Of a DNA stretch of 64,000 nucleotides, positions 11,352 to 60,734 are shown in pieces. Source of the DNA: Candidatus Latescibacterota bacterium (GTDB taxonomy: Bacteria; Latescibacterota; MWCZ01). Below the pieces are notes generated by a model that saw nothing but the letters and a program-made list of their open reading frames with translations, was not told the origin of the DNA and made no database searches. Positions within the stretch are counted from its first letter, which is position 1. Every line of letters begins with the position of its first letter. A program made the position numbers and the translations under genes. Location: contig JAKJDF010000001.1 in NCBI GenBank assembly GCA_022706085.1, positions 48,394 to 112,393 on the forward strand. Reading direction: 5' to 3'.

Positions 11352-11356
11352 GCTCG

Positions 11357-12712: not shown

Positions 12713-12760
12713 CGCGGATTTCTCCTTGTTACGGGTTGGCCGGCAGCACCATCGTGCCGC

Positions 12761-13603
12761 CTAGCGCCCGACGGAAATCAGGTCCTTCTCAATCAGCCGT
12801 TTGATCAGAAGCGCAACCGCGCCTTCGGGATCGTTCTCCGCATCCCCCAGGACTTCTCCGCGCGCACGTTCCGGGGCGAAAATCTTTTTGACGTGGGTGG
12901 GCGAGCCTTTGAGGCCGACTCGTGAGAGATTCAGTTGCAAAAACTGGTTATCCCACACGGGGATTTCGGCGGTTTCCGCCATGAGCCGGTTTGGCACCTT
13001 CGGGTAGCGGGGCTCGTTAATCTCGCGCACCAGGGTCAGGCAGGCGGGCAGAAGGGCACGCACGACCTCCCGGCGGCCTTCAAGCTTCCTCCGCACGGTG
13101 ATGGTTCGCTCCGCACCGTTGATGTCCAGAATCCTGTCTACCAGAGTCAGCAGGCAATAGTTCAGTCGGACGGCAATGCCGGGGCCCACCTGAGCGGTAT
13201 CGCCGTCTATCGTCTGCTTCCCGCAGATGACGAGATCCACCCTTCCCTGTTCTTTTTCGACGCGGCGGATGACTTCGGAGAGCACGTAACTCGTCGCCAG
13301 AGTATCCGCCCCGCCAAATACGCGGTCGGATACCAGCACCACATCGTCCACGCCGAGGGCGAGGCACCTGCGCAGGGTTGCCGCCGCGTTGGGCGGCCCC
13401 ATGGTGACCGCAGTCACGAGGCATCCGAACCGATCCTTGAGGCGCAGTGCCTCCTCCACGGCGTGCGTGTCAAACGGGTTCATGATGAACGGCACGCCTT
13501 CACGGATCAGCGTACCCGTTGCAGGGTCCACCTTCACCTGCGTCGTATCGGGCACCTGTTTGACGGCCACCACCACGCGATTCAGCGTTTTCCGTGTTGT
13601 CAT
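12761..13603 (-). CDS. etfB: electron transfer flavoprotein beta subunit (FixA/bifurcating-type motif)
   Basis: N-terminus VVAVKQVPDT. DGDTAQVGP motif encoded at 13181..13207. Adjacent to etfA. Confidence 0.85.
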   Translation of the reverse strand: MTTRKTLNRVVVAVKQVPDTTQVKVDPATGTLIREGVPFIMNPFDTHAVEEALRLKDRFGCLVTAVTMGPPNAAATLRRCLALGVDDVVLVSDRVFGGADTLATSYVLSEVIRRVEKEQGRVDLVICGKQTIDGDTAQVGPGIAVRLNYCLLTLVDRILDINGAERTITVRRKLEGRREVVRALLPACLTLVREINEPRYPKVPNRLMAETAEIPVWDNQFLQLNLSRVGLKGSPTHVKKIFAPERARGEVLGDAENDPEGAVALLIKRLIEKDLISVGR

Positions 13604-14256: not shown

Positions 14257-16263
14257 TTGCGGTACGGTGATCGTCTGTTTTCGAACGTCGCACGCGTTGC
14301 GCGGGAGCAACGCCTCGGACGTCATGTCGCACCGACACTCCTGACCATCCTGCTGGTTTCCGCCCCCTCGGCGTTTGCCCTCGCCAACTACACGGACCCG
14401 TCCGGGTACCCCACGCCGTGGCCAAGCGTGTTAACCACCAGCGCCTACACGCGGCTCGGCGTCCCGGAGGCGGACAAAACCGGTCAGACTGACGGGTCCA
14501 AAGGCGCTTCGCCACAAAGCTCCAACGACTTCTCCTCGGGCCCTCTCAACGACCAGCCGTCGTTTTTCTACTACGGGAACGGCACGATCCTCTACTTCCG
14601 CTTCCGTGTCGGCGGGCCGCCGACCGCACTCACCGGCAGCGGGCAGCCCTTCACTTCCGCCACGTGGAACGTGTTGATGGACACGGACGGCGACGGATGG
14701 AAGGAGTTCGTCGTCTTTCTGGATGGCACCAGTTCAACCGTTCAGCCGGACGACATCGTCATTATCTACGAAAACGTGAACAGCCAGCGGTTCGACATGA
14801 ATCAGGTCGGAATCTGGCGGCAGGACTGCGCGGGACCCAACGACAACGTGGACGGCGCATCCGGCAAAAGTTCGACATGGGACACCGACCCCGATGCCTA
14901 CGTGTGGGATTTTGGCAGGACGCGGGTGGTGCAGATTGACCGGACAAAACCGGCGGGAAGCCAGAACAGCGAATACTGGATTGACGTGCAGGTGCCCGTT
15001 GAGGCCTTTGACGCAAGGTCGCTTACCCCGCCAGGTCCGCAGCTCACCGCGTCGAGTTTCTTCTCCATTGCCGCAACCACAAGCGCGAGCAACACTGATC
15101 CCACGCACAAGGACCTGCTGTACAGCGGGGATTTCGCGCTGGCGGACGTTCCGTTGCCGGGCGGAGACCTTTACGATGGGTACGGCACCCGAATAGACGC
15201 GCCGATCATCGCCGGGCTTACCCAGACGGGCTGCCCTTCGCCTGATACGCTCAAAGCGACGGTCGCGGATGTTTTGACCGTAGTCGGTGGTCTGACGACG
15301 GACACAATAGATTCGGTGTGGTTTGAGGTTTACTACGATTACAACGGCGACTGGGCGGAGAACGACCCCGGCCAGACGTGGACCCGCATCGGCGCAGGGA
15401 CCCGCACGGGAATCGGGCAGTTCCGGTACGTCTGGGATGTGTCGCAGGTGTCCGCCGGCAATTTCCTGATCCGGGCGGTAGCGCGCGACAAACAGAATAA
15501 CACGACGTATTCCACAAGCAACCCGGCCGGCACGACGTACCTCGTTGCGAAGTTCACCAACACCTGCAGCGCCATTGCCGTACTCAACACGTCAACAAAA
15601 TCCGTTTCTGACCTCAACGGCGCACAGACGCTTCCGGGCGACACGCTGCTGTACACGATCGTGATCCGTAACACCGGCGGCGGCAGCGCTACAAGCGTGG
15701 TGCTCAAGGATACGGTCTCCGCGTATCTCAACTACGTCGTGAACTCCGCCGCGCCGACGCCTGCGGCGACTACGCCGGCGCTGCAGTGGAACGTCGGTAC
15801 GCTGGCGGCGGGTGCTTCGGCGACGTTCACGTTCCGCGGAGTAGTGAAAAGCCCGATCGCGAACCAGACGGAAGTCCTTAACAAAGGCTGGATAACATAC
15901 AACACCGGAGCCATGACGGGCCTTTCCCGTCTTGTCACCGCCTCGATCACGGTCACTTCTCAGCCGATGGCCACGTGTTCAAAGAGCGTCAACAAGAGCA
16001 CCGCGGCGCCGGGGGATACACTGACCTACACCGTGACGTATGGAAACAACGGCACCGATACGGCCACGTTCCTCATCATCTCGGATACGGTGCCGACTCA
16101 GACCAGTTATGTCTTAAACAGTGTAACGCTCAACGGCGTGCCGAAGACCGACGCGGCTGACGCGGATCAGGTGACCGTCTCCGGGGGCAACATAAGTGTT
16201 TCGGTGGGAACCGTTCCGGTGGGCGGGAGCGGAACGTTTTCGTTCCGCGTGAGAGTGAAGTAG
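14257..16263 (+). CDS. secreted DUF11-repeat protein 1 with a unique ~260-aa N-terminal domain (candidate tip/adhesin)
   Basis: TTG start with GGAGG 9 nt upstream. Signal peptide ...LLVSAPSAFALA. DUF11 cores (LPGDTLLYTIVIRNTGGGSATSVVLKDTV; APGDTLTYTVTYGNNGTDTATFLIISDTVP). Ends ...GTFSFRVRVK. Confidence 0.8.
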   Translation: MRYGDRLFSNVARVAREQRLGRHVAPTLLTILLVSAPSAFALANYTDPSGYPTPWPSVLTTSAYTRLGVPEADKTGQTDGSKGASPQSSNDFSSGPLNDQPSFFYYGNGTILYFRFRVGGPPTALTGSGQPFTSATWNVLMDTDGDGWKEFVVFLDGTSSTVQPDDIVIIYENVNSQRFDMNQVGIWRQDCAGPNDNVDGASGKSSTWDTDPDAYVWDFGRTRVVQIDRTKPAGSQNSEYWIDVQVPVEAFDARSLTPPGPQLTASSFFSIAATTSASNTDPTHKDLLYSGDFALADVPLPGGDLYDGYGTRIDAPIIAGLTQTGCPSPDTLKATVADVLTVVGGLTTDTIDSVWFEVYYDYNGDWAENDPGQTWTRIGAGTRTGIGQFRYVWDVSQVSAGNFLIRAVARDKQNNTTYSTSNPAGTTYLVAKFTNTCSAIAVLNTSTKSVSDLNGAQTLPGDTLLYTIVIRNTGGGSATSVVLKDTVSAYLNYVVNSAAPTPAATTPALQWNVGTLAAGASATFTFRGVVKSPIANQTEVLNKGWITYNTGAMTGLSRLVTASITVTSQPMATCSKSVNKSTAAPGDTLTYTVTYGNNGTDTATFLIISDTVPTQTSYVLNSVTLNGVPKTDAADADQVTVSGGNISVSVGTVPVGGSGTFSFRVRVK

Positions 16264-16277
16264 GAAAGGAGCGTGCA

Positions 16278-16859
16278 ATGAGTAGCGACACGGGCATCAG
16301 GCGGGGAGGTTCACGCGCGTTGAGCGCGTTGATCCTCCTGATTGCCGCGTGTGGTGCGCTTGCGGTCAGCCAGCCCGCACGTGCTCAACAACCGGCAGCA
16401 AACGGCGTGTCCATCACCATCACCGACGAACTCGTCCTGCCCGCGGGTGATCCGCGAATCGGGAAAGCGGTGAGGGACAGCGCCGGTAACCTCATTTCCA
16501 GACCGGGTGACATCATCAAGTATACCCTTACCGCCGTGAACAATGGCACGGAGCCGGCGTACGGCGTGGAAATCGTGGACCCGATCCCTCGGGGAACGGA
16601 GTTCGTCATCGGGAGCGCCGCCGGCGTCGGGATGACGATCACGTACAGCGTCGATGGAGGCAGGTTTTTCCAACCTGCACCCATCATGTATGACTTCCAG
16701 AAGCCGGACGGAACGATTGAGAAGCGGCACGTGCCGGCCGACCGTTACACGCACATCAAATGGCTGGTGAACGAGCCAATCAGGCCGCGATCCAGAGCAG
16801 TCGCCACCGTTCGGGTAAGAGTGTCCTTGCCCGGAGCAGCAGAAGGGGCAGGACAATGA
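16278..16859 (+). CDS. secreted single-DUF11-domain protein 2
   Basis: AAGGAG RBS. Signal peptide ending AVSQPARA. DUF11 core RPGDIIKYTLTAVNNGTEPAYGVEIVDPIPRGTEFV. Confidence 0.75.
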   Translation: MSSDTGIRRGGSRALSALILLIAACGALAVSQPARAQQPAANGVSITITDELVLPAGDPRIGKAVRDSAGNLISRPGDIIKYTLTAVNNGTEPAYGVEIVDPIPRGTEFVIGSAAGVGMTITYSVDGGRFFQPAPIMYDFQKPDGTIEKRHVPADRYTHIKWLVNEPIRPRSRAVATVRVRVSLPGAAEGAGQ

Positions 16860-16948: not shown

Positions 16949-18685
16949 ATGAAGGCACTCAGGGGTCGAACATGGTGGTTTCTCGGGTTGCTGCTGGCCC
17001 TTGTTCCTTTCGGAACGTCCTGGGCCGCCGGCACACCTGCGGGAACCGTCATCAGTAACTTCGCGACCTTGAGCTACAGGGACGTGAACGGCAATGCGTT
17101 GCCGAACATCACCTCGAACACCGTCACCACCGTGGTGGCGCAGGTTGCCGGCGTGGATGTCTCGCCGGCCACGTCGTCCCAGTCGGTGGCGGAAAACTCG
17201 TGGGTCTCGTACACCGCGACAGTCACCAACATGGGCAACGGCACCGATTCGTTCACCCTCACCACGTCAGCCCTGTCTTCCGGCTGGACGGCCGTTATTT
17301 ACGGCGACCCGAACAATAACGGGGTTCTGGACGCGGGTGAGATGGTGCCGGGCAACGTTGTCAGCACCATCGCGAGCCTCCCGGCGGATAGCGCGAAGCA
17401 CGTATTCGTGGTCGTGAACGTGCCGCTGGGTGCACTGGATGGTTCGTCACAGGCAGTCACGCTGACCGCGACCTCGCAGTTCAACACCGGCGTCTCGGAT
17501 GCGGGCGTGTACACGTCCACCGTCTCAACTGCCGTGCTGTCCATGACGAAGTCGGCAACTCCAGCCGACCCGAAGCCGGGTGACATCGTGACGTACGCCA
17601 TCGTGGGGAATAACACCGGCACCAGCACGGCGTACGGTGTCGTTGTCAAAGACATCATCCCCAGTGGCGTGACCTATGTTCCCGGTTCCACGCGCATCGT
17701 CATCGGTCCGGGCGGCACGTATGATACGGCTACGCCGATGACGGACGCGGCGGATGCCGACCCGGTGGATTACGGCGTTACCGCAGCCGGTCAGGTGACC
17801 GTCAACTGGGGCAATTCCCCGGCCGGACAGACCGGAACCATTTTCATCCGCGTGCAGGTGAACGCCGGCATCGCGGCGGGAACGGTTGTCTCCAACCAGG
17901 CCAGTGCTACGTACAGCTCCACGCCGGGAGGCGACCCGCTTCCTGCGGTGAACAGCACGCCGGGTGATATCACCGTTGCCGCGAAACCCATCATCACACT
18001 GTCGAACACTTCGCTGGCGCTCACCGGCCAACCGGGTGACAGCCTGACGTATGCCTTCAGCCTGACAAACAGCGGCAACTCGAACGATGTGTTCGACTTC
18101 ACGACGTCCTCCACGCAGGGCTTCACCAATCAGATCTGGCTCGATGCCAACAACGACGGCATCGCCGGGAATGATGGCGACGTTCTGCTGACGGACACCG
18201 ACAGCGATGGCAAGGTCGATACGGGCTCAATACCGGCAGGTACCGTTGCCCATATCATCGTGGCGCTGGTGGTAACGCCGGGAACGGCGGACATGGACGT
18301 GGACGCCACCACGGTAACGGTCGCGTCTTCCGTCGATCCGACGGTTACAGGCACGGTTACGCTTACCTCCACCGTGCACGCGCCGGTGCTTTCGATTGTG
18401 AAGTCCGTGTCTCCGACCGGCTCACAGCCGCCCGGCACGGTGCTGACGTATACGGTCGTGGTGTCGAACAATGGCCATGGCACGGCGACGCAGTTGCAGA
18501 TCGTGGACCTGATCCCCACCAACACAACGTATCAGGCCGGGACGATCAAGGTGAACGGAACCGCGCGCACCGACGCCGTTGACGGGGACAACGCCGAACT
18601 GCAGGGTGGCAGCGTGGTCGTTCGCTTCGCCACGATGGGCGCAGGCTCGAGTAACACGTTCACGTTCGACGTGAAGATTGACTGA
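16949..18685 (+). CDS. secreted DUF11-repeat protein 3 (candidate fibre shaft subunit)
   Basis: ORF 16760..18685. ATG 16949 has AAAGGAGGAG upstream and gives signal peptide MKALRGRTWWFLGLLLALVPFGTSWA. An alternative ATG 16856 overlaps the stop of protein 2. DUF11 cores KPGDIVTYAIVGNNTGTSTAYGVVVKDIIPSG and PPGTVLTYTVVVSNNGHGTATQLQIVDLIP. DxDxDG-like loops. Confidence 0.8.
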   Translation: MKALRGRTWWFLGLLLALVPFGTSWAAGTPAGTVISNFATLSYRDVNGNALPNITSNTVTTVVAQVAGVDVSPATSSQSVAENSWVSYTATVTNMGNGTDSFTLTTSALSSGWTAVIYGDPNNNGVLDAGEMVPGNVVSTIASLPADSAKHVFVVVNVPLGALDGSSQAVTLTATSQFNTGVSDAGVYTSTVSTAVLSMTKSATPADPKPGDIVTYAIVGNNTGTSTAYGVVVKDIIPSGVTYVPGSTRIVIGPGGTYDTATPMTDAADADPVDYGVTAAGQVTVNWGNSPAGQTGTIFIRVQVNAGIAAGTVVSNQASATYSSTPGGDPLPAVNSTPGDITVAAKPIITLSNTSLALTGQPGDSLTYAFSLTNSGNSNDVFDFTTSSTQGFTNQIWLDANNDGIAGNDGDVLLTDTDSDGKVDTGSIPAGTVAHIIVALVVTPGTADMDVDATTVTVASSVDPTVTGTVTLTSTVHAPVLSIVKSVSPTGSQPPGTVLTYTVVVSNNGHGTATQLQIVDLIPTNTTYQAGTIKVNGTARTDAVDGDNAELQGGSVVVRFATMGAGSSNTFTFDVKID

Positions 18686-18789: not shown

Positions 18790-21700
18790 ATGTTCTCGCG
18801 TCTTCGGCTACGGGTGTACCTACTGGTCGCCGCCATGTGCATGGCAGCGACCAGTGTGTACGCCGTGACGCCGCCGGGAACGCTGATCACGAGCCAGGCT
18901 TCCGCTACGTATTTTGATAACGGCGGCTTCCAGTTCTCCATCCTGAGTAACACCGTTGTTACGCCGGTTCTCGGCGCCGTCGTCGGGACGGACGGTACGA
19001 TAGCTCAGAACACGCAGATCGTCGCCGGCGAACCCATTACGATCATTGTTACGGACCCCGACCGCGATTACCTCCCGAACGCGATTGACACGGTGCATGT
19101 GACCGTGGTGAACTCGCGGACGGGCGAAACCGAAACCCTTGTGCTGTACGAAACCGGGCAGGGCACCGGCGTGTTTTCCGGTTCCCTGCCCACCTATTAC
19201 GGTCAGAGCGCAGGCGCTGACGGTGATGGGACGCTGTTCGCGCAGCCGGGGGACGTGTTGCAGACGTCCTACGCCGACACGGCAACGTCGACCGGCGGCA
19301 CGGCGACGGTGACCGGCCAGACAAGCGTTCTGCCCACCTGGATCAAGCTAACGCCAGAACCGCACACCATCGTCGCCAACGGAACCGATCAATCGCGGCT
19401 GACCGCCCGGGTGACGGATGACCTTGACCGGCCGCTGCCGGACGGGACGATCGTCGTGTTTACGGCGGACAAGGGCAAGTTCTCGAACGGGACGCAGCGG
19501 ATCGAGGTGCCGGTAGCAGGTGGCAACGGGGAAGCAGTCACCGTGCTCACCGCACCCATTCTGGCGGCGAATGACACGGCGCGCGTGCTTGCGTCGTATC
19601 GCGGGTTCGATTCGGACGTGATCAAGTTGATCATCCTGCCGGGCGCCGTTGCGGTGCGCGTGTATGACCAGACACGAGACGTTGAGGTGAGGGCGAGTGA
19701 CCCGGCGCTTCTTGTTGAGGTGACGCTCGAAGGAACCACGGTCACCGGCGACCCGGTTTCGATCCACGTCACGGTGGACGAGAATGGCGTGTTCGTCGTG
19801 CCGGATATTCCGCCCGGCAACTATGAACTGCACGTCGTTGTGACGAGCCGAACTACGGGCGAAGTCGTCATGGACGGCGTGCTCCAAACCATCATCGTGA
19901 ATATGGACGGGTCGACCTCGCCGCCGCGCAACTCCGTAAGCGGGATGGTGCATGCGCGTAATGAGGAGTCGGGGGCGCGGTATGCCGGCGCGACGGTTGA
20001 GCTTTTGGACGCCAGCGGCAACGTGGTGGCGACCACGATCCTCGACGCCATGGGCAGGTACGAGTTTCAGAACCTGCTGCCGGGGGCCTACTCCCTGCGC
20101 GTGAAGATGGAGGACGGCGATACCTTCACGGTGCCCGTTTCCTCGCGCACGAACAACCTCGGCGAAGTGGTGTTGAACGCAGACGTGCTGATTGATCCGT
20201 TCGGGCGGGTGTTTGATGCCGTCACTACCGCGTTGATTCCCGGGTCCACGGTGACGCTGCGGAACCTTGACGAGAGTGTGCTGGCGATCCCGCCGCTGAG
20301 TGGAACCGGCGTCCCGCCGAACGTGAACAACATCAACCCGTTCGTCACGCCAGCCGACGGCCGGTACGCGTTCCTGTTCAGCTCATCACAGGTAGGGACG
20401 GTGGCGAATCCGGCGCGGTACATCATGACGGTAGATCCGCCATCCGGAACCACGTATCCGCCGCGCAGGATGCACCTGACGGTGCGGCCGACGGCGGAAG
20501 GTTCGTCGACGATCATGATGACGGTGGCCTCCGGCGACGGCCTTCAGATCGCGCGGCCAAACTCGTTCGGGCTCACCAACGGACCGGTCACGGTTCCGGA
20601 TATCGAGACGGTTGCCTACAACGTGCCGATGTTCGCGAAAACACCGATTCTGAAGTTCTCGAAGCTCGCGTCCACCGACACGACCAGCTACGGTGAGACG
20701 GTTGACTTTGCGATCGTGGTGAAGAACTTGGGGAACGACATCGCGCCTGCGGTCACCGTCACCGACACGCTGAACAGCGGGTGGAAGCTCGTTTCGTCGG
20801 ATGCCACATCGTCGAGCGGGGGTATGCTGAGCTGGGCTGTCGGCGACCTGCAGCCGGGCGGGAGCGATACGCTGCATGTGCGCGCCGAGGCGATGGACCA
20901 GGGCGTGATTCTGACGAACGCCGCGTGGGCGCAGTTCACGGGTGGGCTGCCGATCTCCTCGCAGGCGGATGTGGTCTCGCGCAGCGCGTCGTCGATATCC
21001 GTCACGAAGGCAGTCGTGACGCCGCCGGCACTTGTGGGAAAAGAGATTCACTACGAGATCCGTTTGAAGACCCCGCCGGGGTACGCAGGCAAGATCACGG
21101 TTGAAGACCCCCTGCCGCCCGAACTGGTGTACATCGTTGGAAGCAGCGTTCCGGCTGCGACGTACGATGCGGGTACGCATACGCTTACGTGGGATGTCTC
21201 CGGCGCCACCACTGACACAGTGCGGGTGTTCAGATTCGCCACGGAGCCGCGCACCGACCTGTCGCCGGGGGACTATCCGATTCCCAACACGGCGACGGCA
21301 AGCGTGGGAGCGTTCAAAATCGGCTCGAACCGGGCGGACGACCTCGTGACGGTGCCCTACTTCCGAATCACGAAAACGTCGGACATCACCAGCGCGGAAA
21401 CCGGCGATTTCGTGGTGTACCGGATCGCGCTGGAGAACCTCAGCGCGTCCGACAGCCTGTCGAACATCGTGGTGCGGGACGTTATGCCGTTCGGTTTCGA
21501 GTATGTGCCCAACACGGCGCGCCTCGACGGCGTTCCCGCTCCGCCGGACACACTGCGGGACCGGCAGATCATCTGGAAGGTTTCCGGGGTAGGCGCCGGC
21601 AGAACCCGCCAGCTCACCTACCGGCTCGTGCTGGGCATGGGGGCGGGCGCGGGAGACGGGCGGAACACCGCAACGGCAACTGCGAAGACCTCGCGTGGGG

Positions 21701-24700
21701 CGACACTGGCCGCCGGCCCTGCTACGGCGAGGGTGTTCGTCCGGCCTGCGCCGTTCAGCAGCGATCAGGTGGTTCTTGGCCGCGCGTGGGTTGATCTGAA
21801 CGGCAACAAGGTGCACGATGAAGGTGAACCGGGTGTTCCGGGCGTGGTACTCCTGATGGAAGACGGCACGCGCATCATCGCCGATAGGTCGGGCCGATTC
21901 TCCATTCCGGAAATCCGCGCCGGCGACCACGCAATCCGGCTTCTGGAGCACAACATTCCGGACAGCCTCGAGCCGGTGATTCTGGGCGTGAGGTCTACGA
22001 ACGATCCGTGGGTACGGTTCGTAAGCGTATCCGCCTCAGGGATGGCGAAGGCGAACTTCCCGTTCCGGGTGAAACCTCGTGCACCGGCCCCACCGCCACC
22101 GCCGCCGCCTCCTCCGCCGCCACCGGCACCGCCCGAGTCGCTCACCGTGGCGGTCACCATTGAGCGGGTGATCGTTCCGGATTCGATTACGATCCCGGCG
22201 TCGGAGACGATCATACTGGAGTCCGGCGTGACGTTTGCAACCGGGAAAGCCGATCTGCGCCCTGAAGGAATCGCGGTGCTGAACGATCTGCTCCCGAGAA
22301 TCAAACGAGCGCAGGGCCGTCAGATCACGGTGAGCGGACATACTGATCCGCGGCCGATCCGCACGCGGCAGTTCCCCAACAACATGGTTCTTTCGCTGGC
22401 GCGAGCTCGTTCGGTGCGCAACTGGATGGTGCAGAACGGCGTGGATTCGACGCACATCGCGATATTCGGGTACGGTCCCGACCGGCCCATAGCACCAAAC
22501 ACCACGCCGGAGGGGATGCAGAAGAACCGCCGCGTGGAGATCAACCTTGATTACGGAACCGAGGCGCGGACGATTCCTGCCGGGACCGCCCGTGTGCGGC
22601 TCGCGATCCGCACCTCGGAAAATGCGGCACGCGATACATTCACGATCTCGCAGCCTCTTCCGGAGGATATTGCGCGTCCTGCTCCGGATTCGTTGCAAGA
22701 TCGTACCGTGCAACACGGAGACTCCGTGTGGGCGAAAATCGGCCGCGAGACTTCAGTGTTCACCGATCTGCCCGCCCCTGTGGTCACCCACCGCACGTGG
22801 GGCGCGATTCCGCTGCGCCGCACGAGCGAGCACCGGGATGGAACGATACGCGAGACGTGGAACGGTAGTATCCGCGTTCCCCTGCCGGCTGATTCGGGCG
22901 CTTCGGCGGTTCCGCAGAGTGGCCCGGTTCAGACAGGGCAAACGCCCGCGGGTGCGCCGGCGGGAATCAGTTCCGCTTCAGCCGTCGCTGCCTTTGGAAC
23001 AGCGACCGAAACGGGGCTCACCCCGGCGAATGGCGTGGCGCAGACAGGTGCTTCGGCTGCTATCTCAGACAGCGCAACGCGGGCACTGGCGCCGCCAATC
23101 GAGCTGCGACAGGCGCCCACGCCGAGAGAACGTGTCCAGCGACCGGGTCAACTGGTGTGGATCGAGTACCCGACCGCAGACAGCACAGTGAGTTATCGTG
23201 ACCGCTTGACACTGATTGCGCGCGGACGCGCTGGAACGCCGATGACACTCCGGCTGAATGGCAGGGAAGTCACGACGCTCACTGTTCGCGCGGATTCGAA
23301 GGCGGATTTCCTCAACATTGCGGCGCCTTCCGGCCCTGTGACGCTCACCGTTACGCAGACGCTGCCGGGCGGGCGGGTTTTTGCCGACAGCGTTTTCCTG
23401 CACGTGGTGGGACCCGCCGCGCGGGTGACTCTTGACGTGAGCCCTTCGACCCTGCCGGCTGACAGTCTCTCGCAGACGGAGGCGGTCGCGCAGGTGCTCG
23501 ACGAGTGGGGTATGCCGCTGGCAGACGGGCAGATCGTCACTTTCGAAATCGATAATGGTTCGATCCTTACACCGGATCTTTACCCCGACGAGAGGGGAGT
23601 TCAGGTCCAGGTAAGAAACGGATACGCCTCCGTACTCATCCAGAGTTCCGCGACAGTCGGCGAGGCAACGCTGACCGCGAATGCGTCGAACGTCGTTGCC
23701 AGGGCAACTCTGAATTATGCCGTGCCGTACGAGAGATTTACGCTGGTGGGTCTGGCTTCCGGCCAAGTCGGGTGGAAAACGAATGCCGCGGCTCCGGCCG
23801 GAATCAATTTTGGCGAGGACTTCGAGAAGGGCGCGTATGGAAAAGGCAAAGTGGCATTCTTTGGTCGCGGAACGGTGCGCAACAACTACCTCCTGACTAC
23901 ATCGTTTGATTCGGATCGGCGGTTTGACGACCAGGTGTATCGTTATCTGACGCCAGAACGAGCGTATCCCATCCATGGCGACGCCAGCTCGATTTTCTAC
24001 GAAGCGCCCTCCGCGAGCAAGTTCTTCTTCCGGCTCGCGAAAGAACGGAACTACCTGCAGTACGGGGATTTCGCGCCGGATCTTTCGCAAGCTGAGCTTA
24101 CGGCGTACCGGAGGACCTTCACGGGCGTGACCGCCGCAATGCGTAACCGGCGCACCGCGTGGAGCCTTTTTGGCGCCTTCACCGAGCAGGCGATACAGGT
24201 TGACGAGATTCCGGGCGAGGGGATTTCCGGGAATTACTACCTGTCGGCGGCACGTCGTGGCGTGCGCGTGGTGGAAGGAAGCGAAAGGATCGTCATTCAG
24301 ACGCGCGACCGTATTCATCCGGAAAACATTCTGCGCGAGGAAGTGCAATACCGCTTCATCGATTACGAGATAGACTATCTCGCCGGCACGATCCTGTTCA
24401 AGAAGCCAATCCCCAGCCGGGGTTTTGACGAGAACCCGATTTTCATTGTCGCCACGTACGAAGCGTCGCGCGCGCTTCAACGGCACACGGTGGGCGGTGG
24501 CCGATTTGCGCTTCATTCCGGCGAAAAATGGGAGGTCGGCACTTCGGTTGTGGGCGAAGGGCGATCCACGGGTGACTACTGGCTTAGCGGCGTTGACGCC
24601 AGTTATCGGCCTCTGCGAAACATGTTCGTCAATGCGGAGCTGGCGAGGTCGGATCTGGCGCAGACGGGATGGGCGTGGAAATTCGGCGCGCAGGGCCGGT

Positions 24701-26145
24701 ACGGGAGCACCCTGAATTATGACCTCTCGTACAGAAGCGCCGAGCGCGCGTTCTACAACCCGAGCAGCACCTCCGCCCTTCCCGGCGTTACGAAGATGCG
24801 GGGCAAAGTGACGTGGTCGCCGGTTGCATTTGCCAGCTTTACCGGGGAAGCATTCCGATCTGACGACGTGATCAACGGTGAAGTACGCAACAGCGGCGCC
24901 CTCGGCGGGACGTATCGGTGGCGCACGCTGACCGGACTGGTCTCCACGGAACTCACGAGTGTGGACAGGGCTGGTCAGGAAACGCGCACCGGGGTGCTGA
25001 GCACTGGTCTGGAGTGGGCGGCGTCCCGGACGCTCACCCTTAAGGCGGAACGCGACCAGAACTTCCTTGACGAGGACGTGGCGTACCGACCGACACTGAA
25101 CCGCGTTCAGGCGCGTTGGTCGCCGTTGCAGCGTCTGGACGTTGTCGCGGAGCACGCGTTCCGCGACTATAACGTGATGGACTCCAGTTACACTGCGATC
25201 GGCCTGCAATCCCGTGTAACAGACAACACGACGGCATACGCCAACTACAAACTTGACGGCGGGATCAACGGTCAGAAGAACGAGGCGATAGTCGGTCTGC
25301 GGCACCGGTTCATGCCTTTGCCGTATGTATCCATGAGTACAGGCTTCGAGCGGATGCAGACGCTGAGGGGCAATCGCTCCGCCGATTTCTACTCCTACAG
25401 CATCGCCGGGGAGTACCTGCCTCCCGAGTCTTTCAAAGCGAGCGCACGCTTCGAACAGCGCGAGGGCCAGACTCTCGACAAGATGGTGGCGTCGGGAGCG
25501 TTCGACGTTGTGCTGGTTCGGAACCTTTCCCTGCTCGCCAAGCACACGTATGCGGGCGAAGCGACGTTGGCCACGGGGACATGGAATCGGATGCGGAGGC
25601 ATCATTTCCTGTCCGGTCTCGCGTGGCGGTCAGAGCGGAGCGATTATCTGAACGTTCTGGGCAAGTACGAGTACAAAAAGCAGTATAATGGTATGTTGAC
25701 GCCGGCCACGGACCGTTCAGTCCACATCGGATCGCTGGAAGGTATGCTGGAGCCGCGCTCTCAGCTTGAGGTGTTCGGGCGGTACGCGTTCAAGGTGGCC
25801 CAGCTTTCCACCGAGGGAGTGTCCTCGCGGTCGCTTACAGACCTGTGGATGGGGAGCATTCGTTACGAATTGCGGGAAACCTGGGATGTGCTCGGGGAGT
25901 ACCGTTTGATCAGCCAGCACACTGCCAACGATCTGCAGCATGGAGCTTCGGCGGAAATAGGCCGTGTTCTCGGTGGCAATGCACGAATCGCGTTCGGTTA
26001 CAACTTCGTCGGGTACCACGACAGCGACTTCGCCGGGCTCTCGTACTGGGGTCAGGGACCCTTCATGAGGATCCAGGTCAAATTCACTGAGCGCGACGTC
26101 GCCGGGGGGGTGGACGGCCTCCAGACCTTCTGGCGGGGCAGGTGA
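18790..26145 (+). CDS. giant (2451 aa) envelope protein: signal peptide, Big_1-like and CarboxypepD_reg-like Ig domains, three DUF11 repeats, SdrD-B-like domain, poly-Pro linker, OmpA-like domain, Big_1-like domain, ~790-aa C-terminal beta-barrel
   Basis: Signal MFSRLRLRVYLLVAAMCMAATSVYA. DUF11 cores (YGETVDFAIVVKNLGNDIAPAVTVTDTL etc). OmpA block GKADLRPEG...ITVSGHTDPRP...NMVLSLARARSV...NRRVEINL. C-terminal alternating-strand region ending GQGPFMRIQVKF. Confidence 0.85.
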   Translation: MFSRLRLRVYLLVAAMCMAATSVYAVTPPGTLITSQASATYFDNGGFQFSILSNTVVTPVLGAVVGTDGTIAQNTQIVAGEPITIIVTDPDRDYLPNAIDTVHVTVVNSRTGETETLVLYETGQGTGVFSGSLPTYYGQSAGADGDGTLFAQPGDVLQTSYADTATSTGGTATVTGQTSVLPTWIKLTPEPHTIVANGTDQSRLTARVTDDLDRPLPDGTIVVFTADKGKFSNGTQRIEVPVAGGNGEAVTVLTAPILAANDTARVLASYRGFDSDVIKLIILPGAVAVRVYDQTRDVEVRASDPALLVEVTLEGTTVTGDPVSIHVTVDENGVFVVPDIPPGNYELHVVVTSRTTGEVVMDGVLQTIIVNMDGSTSPPRNSVSGMVHARNEESGARYAGATVELLDASGNVVATTILDAMGRYEFQNLLPGAYSLRVKMEDGDTFTVPVSSRTNNLGEVVLNADVLIDPFGRVFDAVTTALIPGSTVTLRNLDESVLAIPPLSGTGVPPNVNNINPFVTPADGRYAFLFSSSQVGTVANPARYIMTVDPPSGTTYPPRRMHLTVRPTAEGSSTIMMTVASGDGLQIARPNSFGLTNGPVTVPDIETVAYNVPMFAKTPILKFSKLASTDTTSYGETVDFAIVVKNLGNDIAPAVTVTDTLNSGWKLVSSDATSSSGGMLSWAVGDLQPGGSDTLHVRAEAMDQGVILTNAAWAQFTGGLPISSQADVVSRSASSISVTKAVVTPPALVGKEIHYEIRLKTPPGYAGKITVEDPLPPELVYIVGSSVPAATYDAGTHTLTWDVSGATTDTVRVFRFATEPRTDLSPGDYPIPNTATASVGAFKIGSNRADDLVTVPYFRITKTSDITSAETGDFVVYRIALENLSASDSLSNIVVRDVMPFGFEYVPNTARLDGVPAPPDTLRDRQIIWKVSGVGAGRTRQLTYRLVLGMGAGAGDGRNTATATAKTSRGATLAAGPATARVFVRPAPFSSDQVVLGRAWVDLNGNKVHDEGEPGVPGVVLLMEDGTRIIADRSGRFSIPEIRAGDHAIRLLEHNIPDSLEPVILGVRSTNDPWVRFVSVSASGMAKANFPFRVKPRAPAPPPPPPPPPPPPAPPESLTVAVTIERVIVPDSITIPASETIILESGVTFATGKADLRPEGIAVLNDLLPRIKRAQGRQITVSGHTDPRPIRTRQFPNNMVLSLARARSVRNWMVQNGVDSTHIAIFGYGPDRPIAPNTTPEGMQKNRRVEINLDYGTEARTIPAGTARVRLAIRTSENAARDTFTISQPLPEDIARPAPDSLQDRTVQHGDSVWAKIGRETSVFTDLPAPVVTHRTWGAIPLRRTSEHRDGTIRETWNGSIRVPLPADSGASAVPQSGPVQTGQTPAGAPAGISSASAVAAFGTATETGLTPANGVAQTGASAAISDSATRALAPPIELRQAPTPRERVQRPGQLVWIEYPTADSTVSYRDRLTLIARGRAGTPMTLRLNGREVTTLTVRADSKADFLNIAAPSGPVTLTVTQTLPGGRVFADSVFLHVVGPAARVTLDVSPSTLPADSLSQTEAVAQVLDEWGMPLADGQIVTFEIDNGSILTPDLYPDERGVQVQVRNGYASVLIQSSATVGEATLTANASNVVARATLNYAVPYERFTLVGLASGQVGWKTNAAAPAGINFGEDFEKGAYGKGKVAFFGRGTVRNNYLLTTSFDSDRRFDDQVYRYLTPERAYPIHGDASSIFYEAPSASKFFFRLAKERNYLQYGDFAPDLSQAELTAYRRTFTGVTAAMRNRRTAWSLFGAFTEQAIQVDEIPGEGISGNYYLSAARRGVRVVEGSERIVIQTRDRIHPENILREEVQYRFIDYEIDYLAGTILFKKPIPSRGFDENPIFIVATYEASRALQRHTVGGGRFALHSGEKWEVGTSVVGEGRSTGDYWLSGVDASYRPLRNMFVNAELARSDLAQTGWAWKFGAQGRYGSTLNYDLSYRSAERAFYNPSSTSALPGVTKMRGKVTWSPVAFASFTGEAFRSDDVINGEVRNSGALGGTYRWRTLTGLVSTELTSVDRAGQETRTGVLSTGLEWAASRTLTLKAERDQNFLDEDVAYRPTLNRVQARWSPLQRLDVVAEHAFRDYNVMDSSYTAIGLQSRVTDNTTAYANYKLDGGINGQKNEAIVGLRHRFMPLPYVSMSTGFERMQTLRGNRSADFYSYSIAGEYLPPESFKASARFEQREGQTLDKMVASGAFDVVLVRNLSLLAKHTYAGEATLATGTWNRMRRHHFLSGLAWRSERSDYLNVLGKYEYKKQYNGMLTPATDRSVHIGSLEGMLEPRSQLEVFGRYAFKVAQLSTEGVSSRSLTDLWMGSIRYELRETWDVLGEYRLISQHTANDLQHGASAEIGRVLGGNARIAFGYNFVGYHDSDFAGLSYWGQGPFMRIQVKFTERDVAGGVDGLQTFWRGR
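22090..22125 (+). repeat. twelve consecutive proline codons (CCG/CCA/CCT) inside the giant gene
   Basis: Codons read directly. Flanked by PAPA.. and ..APP. Confidence 0.95.
22225..22548 (+). other. OmpA-like peptidoglycan-binding domain, internal to the giant protein
   Basis: GVTFATGKADLRPEGIAVLNDLL...ITVSGHTDPRPIRTRQFPNNMVLSLARARSVRNWM...GYGPDRPIAPNTTPEGMQKNRRVEINL matches the OmpA C-terminal domain consensus. Confidence 0.8.
23722..26085 (+). other. predicted large C-terminal beta-barrel domain of the giant protein
   Basis: ~790 aa of short amphipathic strands rich in Y/F/W/G/R with Asp/Asn/Gly turns. Terminal strand ...FMRIQVKF. A ~90-aa non-barrel insert is encoded at 24196..24463. Confidence 0.6.
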
Positions 26146-26185: not shown

Positions 26186-27229
26186 TCAGACTGCTACCTC
26201 TCCCCCGTCCTTCCTCAACAGCTCGATCACTTTCCCCATTACGGCGAACGCGTCGGCGACGTAGAGAACGTCCGCCTTCCCCCTCGCCCACCCGCAACTG
26301 GGATCGAGATTTACGGCGCGCCGTTCGTTGATGAATCGCCATCCCACCACGTGCGGTTCCTCACCGTGGCAGCAGGTTGCAAGCCCTTTGGGATGGCGCG
26401 GCGTGGACCCCGTTTGACCTACCTGGTGCATATGGGTCAGAAGGCTGATCACCTTCTGCCCTTCCCCGGACTGATCCACCAGGGATTTGCTGCTCCCCAG
26501 GGATGCGTGCGTCAGGTCAAGGAAGCTCCGGATCAGGTTCTCGGCTTCCTCGACATGAACTTCTCCGTCGGACTGTTTCTTCGTCCACCCGGCCCCCGCA
26601 ACAAACAGGAGATCGGCATCGGGGCGAATCGTCTGGGTTCCTGCGGAAGCTGGTTCGATTCCGGCGATCCGGGTGCGCGTTTCCACCGGTTCCACAGGTA
26701 GTATGGAGACCTCCGCGTGCCCGGCAGCGCCGCCCCAAGGGTCGAATACCCCCGGCTCGAGAAGCACCACCCACGGTCGCTGGGACCGTGTCAATTCAGC
26801 AACCATCCTCTGCCGATAGTACCACCGCTGGACGAGAAGCGTGCTTTCGTCCACGCGGAGGCCGGTCACGCGCGTGTCAACGCGACCCTTCGCCCGAAAC
26901 GCAGCACCGGGCATGCAACGCGCGGTGCGGGTGGTCTGAGGCGCCAGGACGAAATCCGCTTCGGCAGCGCGAATCAAAGCCGCAGCCGCTGCTGAATCGG
27001 TGGCACACCTTGCAGACGCAAACTCTGGTCCCTGGACGGCAAGAATCCGGGTTGCGCCGCACGAACCGATGCTGTCCGCGGCTTGTTGAACACGCTCGCC
27101 AATCAATCCGACGTCGAGTGCCGCACCGAATGCCTGTGCAAGCTCGCACGCTCCGGACAACGCTTCAAGCGTTGCTTTCCCGAGAACCCCGTTTTCCTCA
27201 ACAAATGCGACAAGAAGAATCTTTTTCAT
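26186..27229 (-). CDS. divergent electron transfer flavoprotein alpha-like subunit
   Basis: ORF 26186..27256, start ATG 27229 (MKKILLVAFVE...). ETF alpha fold with QVGQTGSTPRHP block. The canonical GISGAIQH FAD motif is replaced by CCHGEEPH. Confidence 0.75.
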   Translation of the reverse strand: MKKILLVAFVEENGVLGKATLEALSGACELAQAFGAALDVGLIGERVQQAADSIGSCGATRILAVQGPEFASARCATDSAAAAALIRAAEADFVLAPQTTRTARCMPGAAFRAKGRVDTRVTGLRVDESTLLVQRWYYRQRMVAELTRSQRPWVVLLEPGVFDPWGGAAGHAEVSILPVEPVETRTRIAGIEPASAGTQTIRPDADLLFVAGAGWTKKQSDGEVHVEEAENLIRSFLDLTHASLGSSKSLVDQSGEGQKVISLLTHMHQVGQTGSTPRHPKGLATCCHGEEPHVVGWRFINERRAVNLDPSCGWARGKADVLYVADAFAVMGKVIELLRKDGGEVAV

Positions 27230-27256
27230 TGCACTACCTGTTCCTCGCTGGCTCAA

Positions 27257-28066
27257 TCATCCCCGTATCCACGCGACAATTTCCTCGGCAATCTGTTCCA
27301 CCGGGACATCCTTGACGATGCGAGTGTTTCGTTGCTGCTGTGGGAGTTCCACCTTCACGAACGAAACCCCTTCCGCGCCAACCTGCACCTGCGGGGCCTT
27401 TTGCAGAGCCGGCATGACGCTTCGCATGTTCGCCATCCCGATTTGCGGGTTGTTCGGCGGCTCAGGCAGGTGGCCCGTCGCCCAGCCAACGACCAGCGGA
27501 GGACGATCGCACCTGCTGACGAGGTAATTGCCGCCTTCGACGCGTTCCATGAGACTGATTTCACCGTTCTCAGAAACCGACAGCGAATCAACCGCGAGAA
27601 AGACCTCCCCAATCCCGAGCATTTCGCCAACGACTTGAAGGGTGACACCTGCGTCCCGCGACGCAGACGCGTACCCCCCGAAAAGAAGCAACCGGTTCCT
27701 GTCCAGGTCTGAAATCGCACCTATCGCGTTCGCAAGCGCGGTTGCGGTTTCAAACGGGTCGCAGAAGCCGCTGGCAGACCCGTCAACCGGCACGAAGATG
27801 AACGGAGCTTTCTGTGCGACTGTCATCATGAGTTGCTGCAGTCGCTGCTTTGGACCGACACTGACCAGCCACACTTTCGATCCCGCATTTTCTTTTGCGA
27901 GATGCGCGGCCTCGTACAGCGCGTGCGCGGCCCACGGATCCAGCACGGACGGCAGGATCATCTCGTTTTTGAGCGCTGGCCCCTTCGGTCCGAGATCCGG
28001 CTCGAGGGTCTGCAACGGATCCGGCACCAGACTTCCGCATACAACGATGTGATATCCCGATTCCAT
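27257..28066 (-). CDS. divergent electron transfer flavoprotein beta-like subunit
   Basis: ETF beta-like length and N-terminus (HIVVCGSLVPDP). Lacks the DGDTAQVGP motif (has SASRDAGVTLQVVGEMLG). Adjacent to the alpha-like subunit. Confidence 0.7.
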   Translation of the reverse strand: MESGYHIVVCGSLVPDPLQTLEPDLGPKGPALKNEMILPSVLDPWAAHALYEAAHLAKENAGSKVWLVSVGPKQRLQQLMMTVAQKAPFIFVPVDGSASGFCDPFETATALANAIGAISDLDRNRLLLFGGYASASRDAGVTLQVVGEMLGIGEVFLAVDSLSVSENGEISLMERVEGGNYLVSRCDRPPLVVGWATGHLPEPPNNPQIGMANMRSVMPALQKAPQVQVGAEGVSFVKVELPQQQRNTRIVKDVPVEQIAEEIVAWIRG

Positions 28067-28090
28067 GAAATCTTGTTCCTTCAGAAAGTG

Positions 28091-29986: not shown

Positions 29987-30018
29987 TCGCTCTCAAATCC
30001 GCGCCACGACACCAATGT

Positions 30019-32220: not shown

Positions 32221-32730
32221 GACGGAGTCACCGTTTGCGGATGAAAGCATCTTCTGGAACCCCTGTAGTGCGTGAGCAACGGAGGAAAAGGCCGGGGAAC
32301 CCTGACTGTTCGCAGATCTGTAATCCTGCGTCTGATCGGGAGGGCGGATGGAAGCCGTGCGGCGCGCTCGTCATCGTTGCGCGCGGGTGAATCAGGTGCG
32401 TATGTTTTGGATTGCGCCGACTGCAATCACGCCCAGGACGTTTATTAAGGTCATAATCCGCGAAGGAGCAGTCAAGGGCGAGCAGTTCCGACGTGCAGCA
32501 CGTTTCGCGATGCGTGGTTCAGGTTGAGTCTGATTGTAGCAGGATTGTTTGATCACGGTTTGTGGTACGATTTGCATTACGCGCTTAATTCCCACGGGAA
32601 ACCCTGTTCTTACCGCAGCTTGACACAGACCTGAGAGCGCTGCGACGCATCGCGTGTGAAAAATACGAGCAAAACAGGGCTGATCTGAGAACACGCGAAC
32701 GGGGCTTCGCTTTCAAATTTCGGATACCGT

Positions 32731-60685: not shown

Positions 60686-60734
60686 ACAACGGCCTGCCGG
60701 CCGTACTGGATCGTCCACTCCAAGGGCGCGCCTT

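Follow-up and report, generated by a model that had tools for sequence, protein, structure and literature searches.

How can one protein chain carry, in this order, modules of the kind exposed on the cell surface, a domain that binds peptidoglycan in the periplasm, and a beta-barrel that sits in the outer membrane? The question is raised by a stretch of 64,000 nucleotides (nt) of DNA from Candidatus Latescibacterota bacterium (GenBank assembly GCA_022706085.1, contig JAKJDF010000001.1, positions 48,394 to 112,393), which is called the window below. Its sole long open frame at 18790..26145 on the forward strand encodes, from an ATG start, a protein of 2451 amino acid (aa) residues. The modules follow one another as a signal peptide, Big_1, CarboxypepD_reg, three DUF11 (CLIPPER) and SdrD_B domains, a poly-Pro tract, an OmpA domain, a linker, two Ig-like domains and about 800 aa without an assigned family. 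This order, given in a preliminary description of the locus, is confirmed by Pfam and the translation, and so are the poly-Pro linker, the Ala/Gly/Ser/Thr/Pro stretch (nt 22882-23145) and the OmpA domain, which had been placed at 22225..22548 and is matched by Pfam at nt 22231-22530. The very large C-terminal barrel proposed for 23722..26085 is predicted by AlphaFold2 (AF2) at 23740..26085, with about 38-40 strands. We lean, with moderate confidence, towards reading the whole as a single-chain version of a widespread three-part envelope machine, composed of an adhesin-like stalk, an OmpA anchor and an Ig-Ig-giant-barrel module, in which the fibre would exit through its own barrel. Fibre, wall anchor and giant barrel stand here in one chain; many bacteria encode them as separate neighbour genes.

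The 2451-aa chain holds one signal peptide only, at its N-terminus. The distal fibre part behind it starts with a domain that carries an ETGxGTGVF motif, of a type found again, at times in tandem, in partner proteins of other loci, and continues with a Big_1/Invasin_D3 domain (aa 186-272), a locally hypervariable Ig-like domain (aa ~285-378) and two CarboxypepD_reg/SdrD_B-like sandwiches, the CarboxypepD_reg and SdrD_B matches having E-values of ~1e-16 to 1e-17 in Pfam. DUF11 is matched by Pfam in three stretches at aa 619-915 (E 3e-34, 118 bits), and the NCBIfam model TIGR01451 is matched as well (E 7e-24, 83.6 bits). DUF11 has been renamed CLIPPER and described as a CnaA-like stalk domain of fibrillar adhesins, whose solved member has an intramolecular Lys-Asn isopeptide bond with a catalytic Asp, and some DUF11 domains are without the bond (bioRxiv 10.1101/2025.04.25.650565). 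In the first CLIPPER domain of the window protein, K (in FSK), D (in VTDTL) and N (in LTNAAW) are candidate isopeptide residues. The OmpA family (PF00691) is matched over its full profile (1-98) at aa 1148-1247 (E 1e-17, 64.6 bits against a cut-off of 27.2), and many NCBIfam models for OmpA, MotB and Pal all match the same segment. The translation keeps the motif HTD...LSLARA...NRRVE (HTD...LSxxRA...NRRVE), the residues of which we take, from OmpA-family structures, to be the peptidoglycan contacts; binding in this protein is predicted from its sequence. The beta-rich domain that follows OmpA is conserved in the fused Latescibacterota clade only.

The first step is to ask whether such a chain stands alone. 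A search with its C-terminal 812 aa returned 38 proteins, most of them of 1015-1045 aa, and the stand-alone homologues that were read have their own signal peptide and then a QLVKIESP-like motif (xxVxIExP); in the window protein, this motif aligns with QLVWIEYP at aa 1454. Window aa 1454-2451 were aligned with 34 homologues (alignment A1, 35 sequences, which also served as AF2 input), and homologues of 25-64% identity cover 96-100% of the window sequence in A1. The features of the family are two Ig-like domains, a YPIxGDxS loop, an insert domain with the pattern G..Y...R..DY...F and a terminal xKxQxKF strand, and all of them are present in the window protein. A HMMER search that covered 1.84 billion representatives (50% identity clusters) gave 6136 representatives of the Ig-Ig-barrel family at E<=1e-3 and 2693 at E<=1e-30, and a scan of one genome per species gave at least 448 loci. 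Below, L-numbers denote loci in other genomes and P-numbers homologous representative proteins. The best 80 of the at least 448 loci were surveyed with the window protein's own domains, and most of them have a giant CLIPPER...SdrD_B...OmpA gene (with one to four OmpA domains) followed directly by a gene for signal peptide, Ig pair and barrel. The pair is found in Latescibacterota, Gemmatimonadota, Ignavibacteriota, Bacteroidota, Neomarinimicrobiota, KSB1 and others; of the loci L001 and L002, one has the barrel gene 10 nt after the CLIPPER/Big_1...OmpA gene, and in the other the two genes overlap by 4 nt. The search for split versions in relatives that the preliminary description had proposed was decisive, as separate fibre and barrel genes occur in most close relatives, where the barrel module is mostly a protein of ~1030 aa with its own signal peptide. 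Since the split relatives have adjacent genes and a signal peptide of its own on the barrel protein, the window protein can be understood as a fusion of a two-gene module. As far as sequences tell, it is one fusion state of a large uncharacterised family, not a lone oddity.

The members differ in how the parts are joined. Among the best 150 of the 6136 representatives, 134 have the complete module; 106 of these 134 are extended at the N-terminus by more than 300 aa (median 926) and 19 are stand-alone, while CLIPPER-like domains occur in 115 of 148 representatives. OmpA was found in 14 representatives (6 before the Ig pair, 8 after the barrel, 1 with both), and many family members carry no OmpA whatever. 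Fibre-barrel chains without a clear OmpA are seen in L071, L078 and P0037, and fibre, barrel and OmpA are three separate genes in L083. The partner proteins range from ~900 to 3200 aa with strongly variable number and content of repeats, and several genomes hold two loci (L061/L080, L016/L018 and L028/L030). Across the family, the domain that most often stands last ahead of OmpA or the barrel part is SdrD_B. In many loci, 30-60 aa of non-Pro spacer separate it from the first OmpA domain, and partner proteins without OmpA end exactly at SdrD_B (L007, L059, L073, L079). In a Chitinophagaceae group, other giant surface-type proteins adjoin the barrel gene; in L032 (13093-20526), of a Chitinophagaceae subgroup, the barrel gene is followed by a gene for a 2477-aa fn3-domain protein and then by one for a DUF11 protein, so that the barrel gene precedes rather than follows its partner and the gene order is not fixed across the family. 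Partners with four OmpA domains in tandem pairs occur in Gemmatimonadota-labelled and similar loci (L008, L009, L014, L015, L040), and mostly one or two are present elsewhere; the number of wall anchors per fibre is lineage-dependent. In P0105 (2393 aa, barrel module 971-1969), TPR repeats (aa 2073-2146) stand after the barrel in the place of OmpA, and the C-terminal periplasmic end of the barrel apparently takes different accessory domains. Named carriers of the family include Agitococcus lubricus (a gammaproteobacterium; WP_107864180.1), Smithella, Desulfobacterales and Thermodesulfobacteriota; A. lubricus is the only described species among the source-named members, the others coming from metagenome assemblies. 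Current annotations read "OmpA family protein", SdrD B-like, "DUF11 domain-containing" or "hypothetical", the barrel has no Pfam or NCBIfam model, and our literature searches found no paper on the barrel family or on a system of this kind.

The second step concerns topology. Across the family, OmpA flanks either end of the barrel module or sits on a separate protein. Its occurrence at either end fits a barrel with both termini in the periplasm, together with the Ig pair and the linker, in the manner of ordinary outer-membrane proteins. In the AF2 model the strands of the Ig pair lie at model residues 4-191, with a predicted local distance difference test (pLDDT) score of 80-91, and its fold matches in Foldseek are invasin, intimin D0-D1 and GH2 C-terminal domains; the second domain is Big_1/Invasin_D3-like, with a weak Big_1/GH2_C5-like Pfam match at aa 1548-1635. 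Because only ~6 residues separate the pair from the first barrel strand, it is probably located in the periplasm, as judged from the model. Since the part from OmpA to the barrel can all be periplasmic, the topological paradox seen in the preliminary description dissolves into one fusion state of a widespread module, and one membrane crossing is left, between SdrD_B and OmpA. In the mechanism that we propose, the single N-terminal signal peptide would carry the entire chain over the inner membrane, and the barrel assembly machinery (BAM) would place the C-terminal barrel in the outer membrane. The OmpA domain, bound to the cell wall, would remain periplasmic together with the Ig pair and the 90-aa disordered linker, and the N-terminal ~1100 aa would thread outward via the wide lumen of their own barrel, with one membrane crossing at the SdrD_B/poly-Pro region and SdrD_B as the barrel-proximal domain. 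The lumen, which would be several nm wide by our own estimate from simple geometry, could let folded, possibly isopeptide-locked Ig-like domains through, and the insert domain and the conserved loop would seal or clamp the pore round the stalk. The resulting surface fibre would be anchored twice, covalently to the barrel and non-covalently to the wall, and the three secreted CLIPPER proteins encoded upstream would likely be co-exported or be accessory fibre components. That the fibre is displayed through its cognate barrel is held with moderate confidence. The poly-Pro tract is a candidate for the stretch that crosses the outer membrane or bridges the gap from membrane to wall. Its length is polymorphic among near-identical relatives, and the run in L003 differs slightly; a conserved rod that spans the membrane was rejected as a family feature, the tract being confined to the closest relatives.

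The preliminary description had left two ways out, threading of the N-terminus through a pore, its own or another, and a strut in the periplasm; threading through the protein's own barrel is the one that we favour, and the strut appears less favourable. A surface fibre is preferred to a periplasmic spacer because of the size range of the partners, their variable repeats, the multiple loci per genome and the clustering of differences in the fibre (see below). If the whole N-terminal region were periplasmic, barrel and OmpA would link the outer membrane to the wall in the style of SlpA/OmpM or OmpA, and the Ig-like modules would be a spacer or scaffold. The ~10 tandem Ig-like domains in 1100 aa, and partners of up to ~3200 aa, far exceed the width of the periplasm by our own estimate, however, and arrays of CLIPPER, SdrD_B and Big_1 are typical of surface fibres; the repeats vary strongly between loci, and genomes hold paralogous loci. 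It is true that the SlpA/OmpM connectors are likewise laid out with a wall-binding domain ahead of a large barrel, that SlpA entries (8ae1, 8agd and 7zgx) are among the best barrel fold matches, that OmpA is linked with the barrel module at both of its possible ends, and that a strut has no secretion step in need of explanation. But many members have no OmpA, so tethering is not the core function, and a tether would not require a barrel of 38-40 strands. We thus regard the periplasmic strut as unlikely.

The upstream genes suggest another alternative. The barrel could be a usher-like platform that exports the upstream CLIPPER proteins and polymerises them into a pilus, with the fused N-terminal region as a periplasmic or basal adaptor. 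Three secreted CLIPPER genes lie directly upstream on the same strand, with similar genes in other loci, and the barrel carries Ig-like domains on its periplasmic side. About six strands into the barrel a small domain is inserted, which is the position of the plug in the ushers of chaperone-usher systems. On the other hand, neither Usher (PF00577) nor a PapD-like chaperone was matched in the scanned window proteins, no usher is among the top 50 fold matches, the insert domain has no significant fold match, and polymerisation chemistry (sortase or donor strand) is not evident. Moreover, the partner of the barrel that is conserved in the surveyed loci is the giant protein ending in SdrD_B/OmpA and not the small proteins, small CLIPPER genes not being detected in several loci. 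A usher-like platform is therefore rather improbable in our judgement.

Display of the fibre through its own barrel presupposes, as a third step, that the C-terminal region is a barrel. The last ~800 aa have no Pfam match even at E<=10 and nothing meaningful in NCBIfam, and a sequence profile search of the PDB with the barrel module matched the Ig-like domain only, not the barrel; the homologues give sub-threshold matches to several barrel families of Pfam. The AF2 model of aa 1454-2451 (m1b3a67df670a) has a mean pLDDT of 81.7 and a predicted template modelling score (pTM) of 0.64, with the barrel region mostly at 80-90. It contains about six long strands, the insert of a small beta domain (model residues ~347-425) and then 32 consecutive hairpin-linked strands with turns of 2-9 residues, in total ~38-40 long antiparallel strands, and the last strand, GPFMRIQVKF, is similar to the beta-signal that outer-membrane proteins have at their C-terminus. 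In a Foldseek comparison with the PDB, the barrel matches were SprA, SlpA of Deinococcus, MtrB, LptD and TonB-dependent receptors, all with a template modelling (TM) score of ~0.1-0.26; SprA and SlpA, the largest solved barrels, are the best barrel fold matches, weakly. The comparison of folds advised by the preliminary description thus brought weak matches to LptD and TonB-dependent receptors and, among the top 50, none to ushers. Covariation was computed by our own mean-field method on 194 filtered sequences (effective number ~150), earlier unfiltered runs having been dominated by gaps. Its neighbour apart, the last strand covaries most with strands 2 and 1, at values that slightly exceed the 95th percentile for non-adjacent pairs, which is a hint of barrel closure. 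With good confidence, the region is predicted to be a single very large outer-membrane barrel of ~38-40 strands.

The rival possibility is that the region is not one closed barrel, and forms two tandem smaller barrels or an open or soluble beta structure that AlphaFold has over-regularised. Multi-barrel chains have been predicted before, by Solan et al. (PNAS 2021, PMC8346858), closure is a prediction from the strand pattern, TM scores to real barrels are low, and the alternation of hydrophobic and polar residues in the strands is only moderate. Against this, the 32 strands run uninterrupted, and a linker of the tandem-barrel type described in that work is absent; the pLDDT stays mostly at 80-90 along the region; and strands 1 and 2 are the non-neighbours with which the last strand shows most covariation. 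The target-normalised TM to barrels of 22 and 26 strands is <=0.28, which argues against an embedded barrel of standard size. In addition, the same source gives a superfamily of barrels of 38 and 40 strands predicted independently from contact maps, although it is not established to be the same family. Two smaller barrels, or no barrel, are thus highly improbable. Two elements of the predicted single barrel stand out. The loop at aa 1707-1740 has near-invariant A1 columns (D254, R257, P269, G277, D278, S280 and Y284), and its motif YPIxGDxSxxxYxAxS is near-invariant across phyla, yet the pLDDT there is 34-37 (model residues 259-285). High conservation without a confident fold suggests that the loop becomes ordered with a partner only, and it is a candidate partner-binding or gating element. 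Conservation within the family is highest in the insert domain (in alignment A2 its mean column identity is 68%), with invariant positions G361, Y363, R402, D405, Y406 and F417 in A1. Modelled alone (AF2 pLDDT 76), it has no significant fold match in the PDB (best E 0.35), and we consider it a candidate plug or clamp. The C-terminal tail behind the last strand is kept in homologues and is modelled at low pLDDT with a short helix.

The fourth step is whether the gene itself is intact. P0039 (source label "OmpA family protein", from a Candidatus Latescibacterota bacterium) is 97% identical over all 2451 aa, the junction included, and its sole indel is two Pro fewer in the poly-Pro tract. The same fusion of fibre, OmpA and barrel occurs in L003 (92% identical), L004, L012/P0041 (42-51% identical, 2402 aa, identical order throughout), L013 and P0035, and in L010 every part lies within one frame. 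The fused relatives span 97%, 92%, ~64%, ~60% and 42-51% identity in independent assemblies, and their linkers, of 60-110 aa at the matching place, are unrelated in sequence. In the window protein, the low-complexity linker occupies the place that the stop codon, intergenic gap and signal peptide have in split relatives, and reading of all three frames of 22300-23400 revealed no arrangement of a stop plus a signal peptide. L006, with 568 open codons upstream, was considered as a further fusion and set aside, as the OmpA protein there is read from a different frame that overlaps; a split locus in which a long open frame is GC-rich is the likelier explanation. Two loci have broken genes, perhaps as pseudogenes or through faulty assembly: the barrel in the fused gene of L013 is interrupted by a stop (10936-10940), and the barrel gene of L026 is broken into three frames (9809-12520). 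Among the 64 differences to P0039, 20 fall in aa 301-400 (19690-19989) and 9 in aa 951-1000 (21640-21789), the remainder being nearly identical; this clustering in two fibre domains suggests local diversifying selection or recombination. Since the same in-frame fusion is present in independent assemblies with diverged linkers, a chimera, which the preliminary description had asked to be checked, or a recent frameshift is ruled out, and we conclude with high confidence, from these comparisons, that the gene is a real, conserved fusion of fibre, OmpA and barrel module. That two neighbour genes have been joined by chimeric assembly, by a sequencing frameshift or in a decaying pseudogene is hardly credible: most close relatives do have two genes at this position, the junction is low-complexity and GC-rich, and L013 and L026 have interrupted barrels, but the fusion persists in frame from 97% down to 42-51% identity with a linker that keeps its 60-110 aa, the other frames hold neither stop nor signal peptide, and the barrel part is of full length and conserved up to the last strand.

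Several points weigh against an own-barrel fibre all the same. The outside location of the N-terminal part is one that we infer indirectly, the isopeptide residues were judged by eye only, and we know of no characterised precedent for the self-threading of a chain of 1100 aa through its own barrel at such a scale. Barrel closure is proposed from the secondary-structure pattern, the fold matches and covariation, of which the TM scores to every solved barrel are low (0.1-0.26) and the covariation is weak at an effective sequence number of ~150; the lumen size and the placement of the insert domain and the Ig pair are likewise predicted. An open pore several nm wide would harm the cell, and the plug proposal is a guess. 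Finally, the poly-Pro tract is not conserved past the closest relatives, and some partners (L001) have no SdrD_B before OmpA.

Among known systems, classical autotransporters (type Va) come closest in design, with one chain made of an N-terminal signal peptide (aa 1-25 here), an adhesin-type passenger (aa 26-1093) and a C-terminal barrel; the N-terminus would be distal and the C-terminus membrane-proximal, and in the favoured model the passenger would likewise exit via its own barrel. However, the barrel here is predicted to have ~38-40 strands in ~800 aa, compared with their 12 strands and ~300 aa, and the Autotransporter barrel family (PF03797) was not matched by Pfam within aa 1640-2451, even with a cut-off of E<=10. 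OmpA, the linker and two Ig-like domains stand between passenger and barrel, the passenger consists of Ig-like/CLIPPER domains instead of a beta-helix, and relatives of the window protein often encode passenger and barrel separately. Inverse autotransporters (type Ve: intimin, invasin) share a periplasmic wall-binding domain, a barrel and Big_1-type Ig domains, but their order is wall-binding domain, 12-strand barrel and C-terminal Big_1 passenger, while that of the window protein is passenger, OmpA, Ig pair and barrel; their wall binder is LysM and not OmpA, the Big_1-like domains beside the barrel are probably periplasmic here, and the intimin-type barrel family has no Pfam match in the window protein. 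The preliminary description was right that the protein is neither of the two, given its barrel family, strand number and module order. As in two-partner secretion and chaperone-usher systems, a dedicated barrel gene adjoins the fibre gene in most relatives and the barrel carries periplasmic accessory domains. Their barrels, of 16 or 24 strands, have far fewer than predicted here, POTRA, TpsB, Usher and chaperone families have no Pfam match in the giant or upstream proteins scanned, and neither usher nor FhaC is among the top 50 Foldseek matches.

SprA/Sov of type IX secretion is a giant single-chain barrel too (36 strands, the largest solved) that passes folded proteins; SprA entries rank 2, 4 and 27 among the Foldseek matches (TM 0.17), and many family loci come from lineages of the Fibrobacteres-Chlorobi-Bacteroidetes group, where type IX secretion occurs. 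No sequence relationship to SprA was detected, however, and the type IX C-terminal sorting domain (Por_Secre_tail) was not matched in the giant or upstream proteins scanned; the family is also present in Thermodesulfobacteriota and the gammaproteobacterium Agitococcus, and its substrate is fused or adjacent, not recruited from elsewhere. The connectors SlpA/OmpM and OmpA combine a wall-binding domain with a large barrel in one chain, SlpA (30 strands) being among the best fold matches, and the layout of E. coli OmpA is copied by the family members that have OmpA after the barrel. Unlike SlpA/OmpM, the window protein has OmpA in place of the SLH domain, a disordered linker and Ig pair in place of the coiled coil, and a fibre of 1100 aa attached, and OmpA is optional in the family. 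By analogy, the logic would be most like that of a classical autotransporter, and that of the split forms like two-partner secretion or a usher, although the defining features of all of these, as of type Ve and type IX, were not found.

For the stalk there is a close counterpart. Acinetobacter silvestris B9T28_05395 has a signal peptide, an N-terminal head, a CLIPPER stalk and an OmpA-like domain (bioRxiv 10.1101/2025.04.25.650565), and CLIPPER adhesins with such an OmpA-like anchor correspond to aa 1-1253 of the window protein, and also to the partner proteins that split loci encode separately. That work does not state by which route CLIPPER adhesins cross the outer membrane, and the term 'outer membrane' is absent from it. 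The window adhesin is fused to a giant barrel as a possible route, and in relatives it adjoins one. For the barrel, a superfamily of single barrels with 38 and 40 strands, bigger than all those solved and without an assigned function, has been predicted from contact maps (Solan et al., PNAS 2021, PMC8346858), and the passages concerned give no link of these barrels to adhesin or OmpA partners; the agreement with our prediction is in strand count alone, and identity of the families is not established. We tentatively put forward, as a possibility that we hold with less than even confidence, that the Ig-Ig-giant-barrel family supplies the outer-membrane part of a secretion and anchoring system that has gone unrecognised. 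Such a system would share the logic of autotransporters with an unrelated barrel, would have the largest single-chain barrels known (38-40 strands), and would export folded, possibly isopeptide-locked fibrillar adhesins held via OmpA or covalent fusion; the window protein would be its all-in-one, self-threading version, and its spread would comprise Latescibacterota, Gemmatimonadota, Bacteroidota, Ignavibacteriota, Marinimicrobia, Thermodesulfobacteriota and some Gammaproteobacteria.

The locus and its relatives offer a candidate outer-membrane route for CLIPPER adhesins, a giant barrel mostly adjoining or fused to the fibre, and suggest a mode of attaching fibres to Gram-negative cells that has not been studied so far. 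If true, this would add a new outer-membrane display system and give a function to barrels larger than any solved. The split, fused and permuted natural forms are a ready-made series of constructs for studies of topology and mechanism.

Table 1. Features of the four-gene CLIPPER/barrel cluster in the window
Feature	Position (nt)	Strand	Residues (aa)	Details and basis
Upstream gene 1, secreted 668-aa protein	14257..16263	+		C-terminal DUF11/CLIPPER, DUF7927, DUF7619; DUF11 E 4e-20 (Pfam)
Upstream gene 2, secreted 193-aa CLIPPER protein	16278..16859	+		DUF11 E 5.5e-08; signal peptide ALSALILLIAACGALAVSQPARA
Upstream gene 3, secreted CLIPPER/CLIPPER_2 protein	16949..18685	+		DUF11 E 7e-18, DUF7507 E 2e-11 (Pfam)
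13-bp perfect inverted repeat, 6-nt loop	18721..18752	+		CTCCTCTCCCGCC-TTTCGG-GGCGGGAGAGGAG; read from sequence
Sec-type signal peptide	18790..18864	+	1-25	...ATSVYA/VT; N-terminus MFSRLRLRVYLLVAAMCMAATSVYA; translation
Distal fibre part	18865..20625	+	26-612	Pfam
Three DUF11/CLIPPER stalk domains	20644..21684	+	619-965	Pfam, NCBIfam
SdrD_B-like domain	21757..22068	+	~990-1093	Ends ...GMAKANFPF; Pfam SdrD_B, two stretches
Poly-Pro tract	22072..22134	+	1095-1115	KPRAPAPPPPPPPPPPPPAPP; translation
OmpA_C-like peptidoglycan-binding domain	22204..22548	+	1139-1253	Pfam, NCBIfam
Post-OmpA beta-rich domain	22555..22881	+	1256-1364	phmmer matches in L003, L004, L013; junction comparison
Ala/Gly/Ser/Thr/Pro-rich low-complexity linker	22882..23145	+	1365-1452	~90 aa, presumably disordered; translation
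Two Ig-like domains	23149..23709	+	1454-1545, 1546-1640	AF2, Foldseek, weak Pfam
Predicted giant outer-membrane beta-barrel	23740..26085	+	1651-2432	AF2, Foldseek, sub-threshold Pfam, weak covariation
Conserved loop	23908..24009	+	1707-1740	DSDRRF...YPIHGDASSIFYEAP; A1 columns, AF2
Inserted small beta-sandwich domain	24181..24429	+	1798-1880	After ~sixth strand; A1/A2 conservation, AF2
Short C-terminal tail, then stop	26086..26145	+		TERDVAGGVDGLQTFWRGR; translation, homologues, AF2

The three secreted CLIPPER proteins encoded upstream of the giant gene may, to judge from their domains, be accessory fibre parts or further substrates. The first has a signal-peptide-like hydrophobic N-terminus, APTLLTILLVSAPSAFA, and its real start is probably downstream of the listed TTG. 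CLIPPER genes of similar size (600-700 aa) lie upstream in L007, L013, L054, L063 and L072, and small CLIPPER genes were not detected in several of the 80 loci. The open reading frame (ORF) of the third opens at 16760, and its signal peptide, MKALRGRTWWFLGLLLALVPFGTSWA, starts at the ATG at 16949. The 104-nt gap that separates this third CLIPPER gene from the giant gene holds the inverted repeat, which has no T-run behind it and drew no call in the terminator scan; the promoter and terminator scan of 13.5-26.5 kb gave counts at chance level. The repeat is a possible attenuator or mRNA-stability element and could adjust the ratio of the upstream proteins to the giant protein.

The cluster is flanked by genes on the opposite strand for electron transfer flavoprotein (ETF), an ETF-quinone oxidoreductase-like (ETF-QO-like) protein and acyl-CoA dehydrogenase (12761-13603 (-) and 26186-32250 (-)), and the G+C content shows no step across it. 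Further upstream, long ORFs overlap on opposite strands, at 11294-12925 (+), with 543 aa and no Pfam match, and at 11357-12712 (-). The ORFs at 54998-57112 and 60495-62006 likewise gave no Pfam match. A Wza-like polysaccharide export protein (Poly_export and SLBB) is encoded at 46533-48419 and, at 57040-58800, a protein that combines a Lamin Tail Domain with a FlgD Ig-like domain, and the window may hold a second cell-surface cluster.

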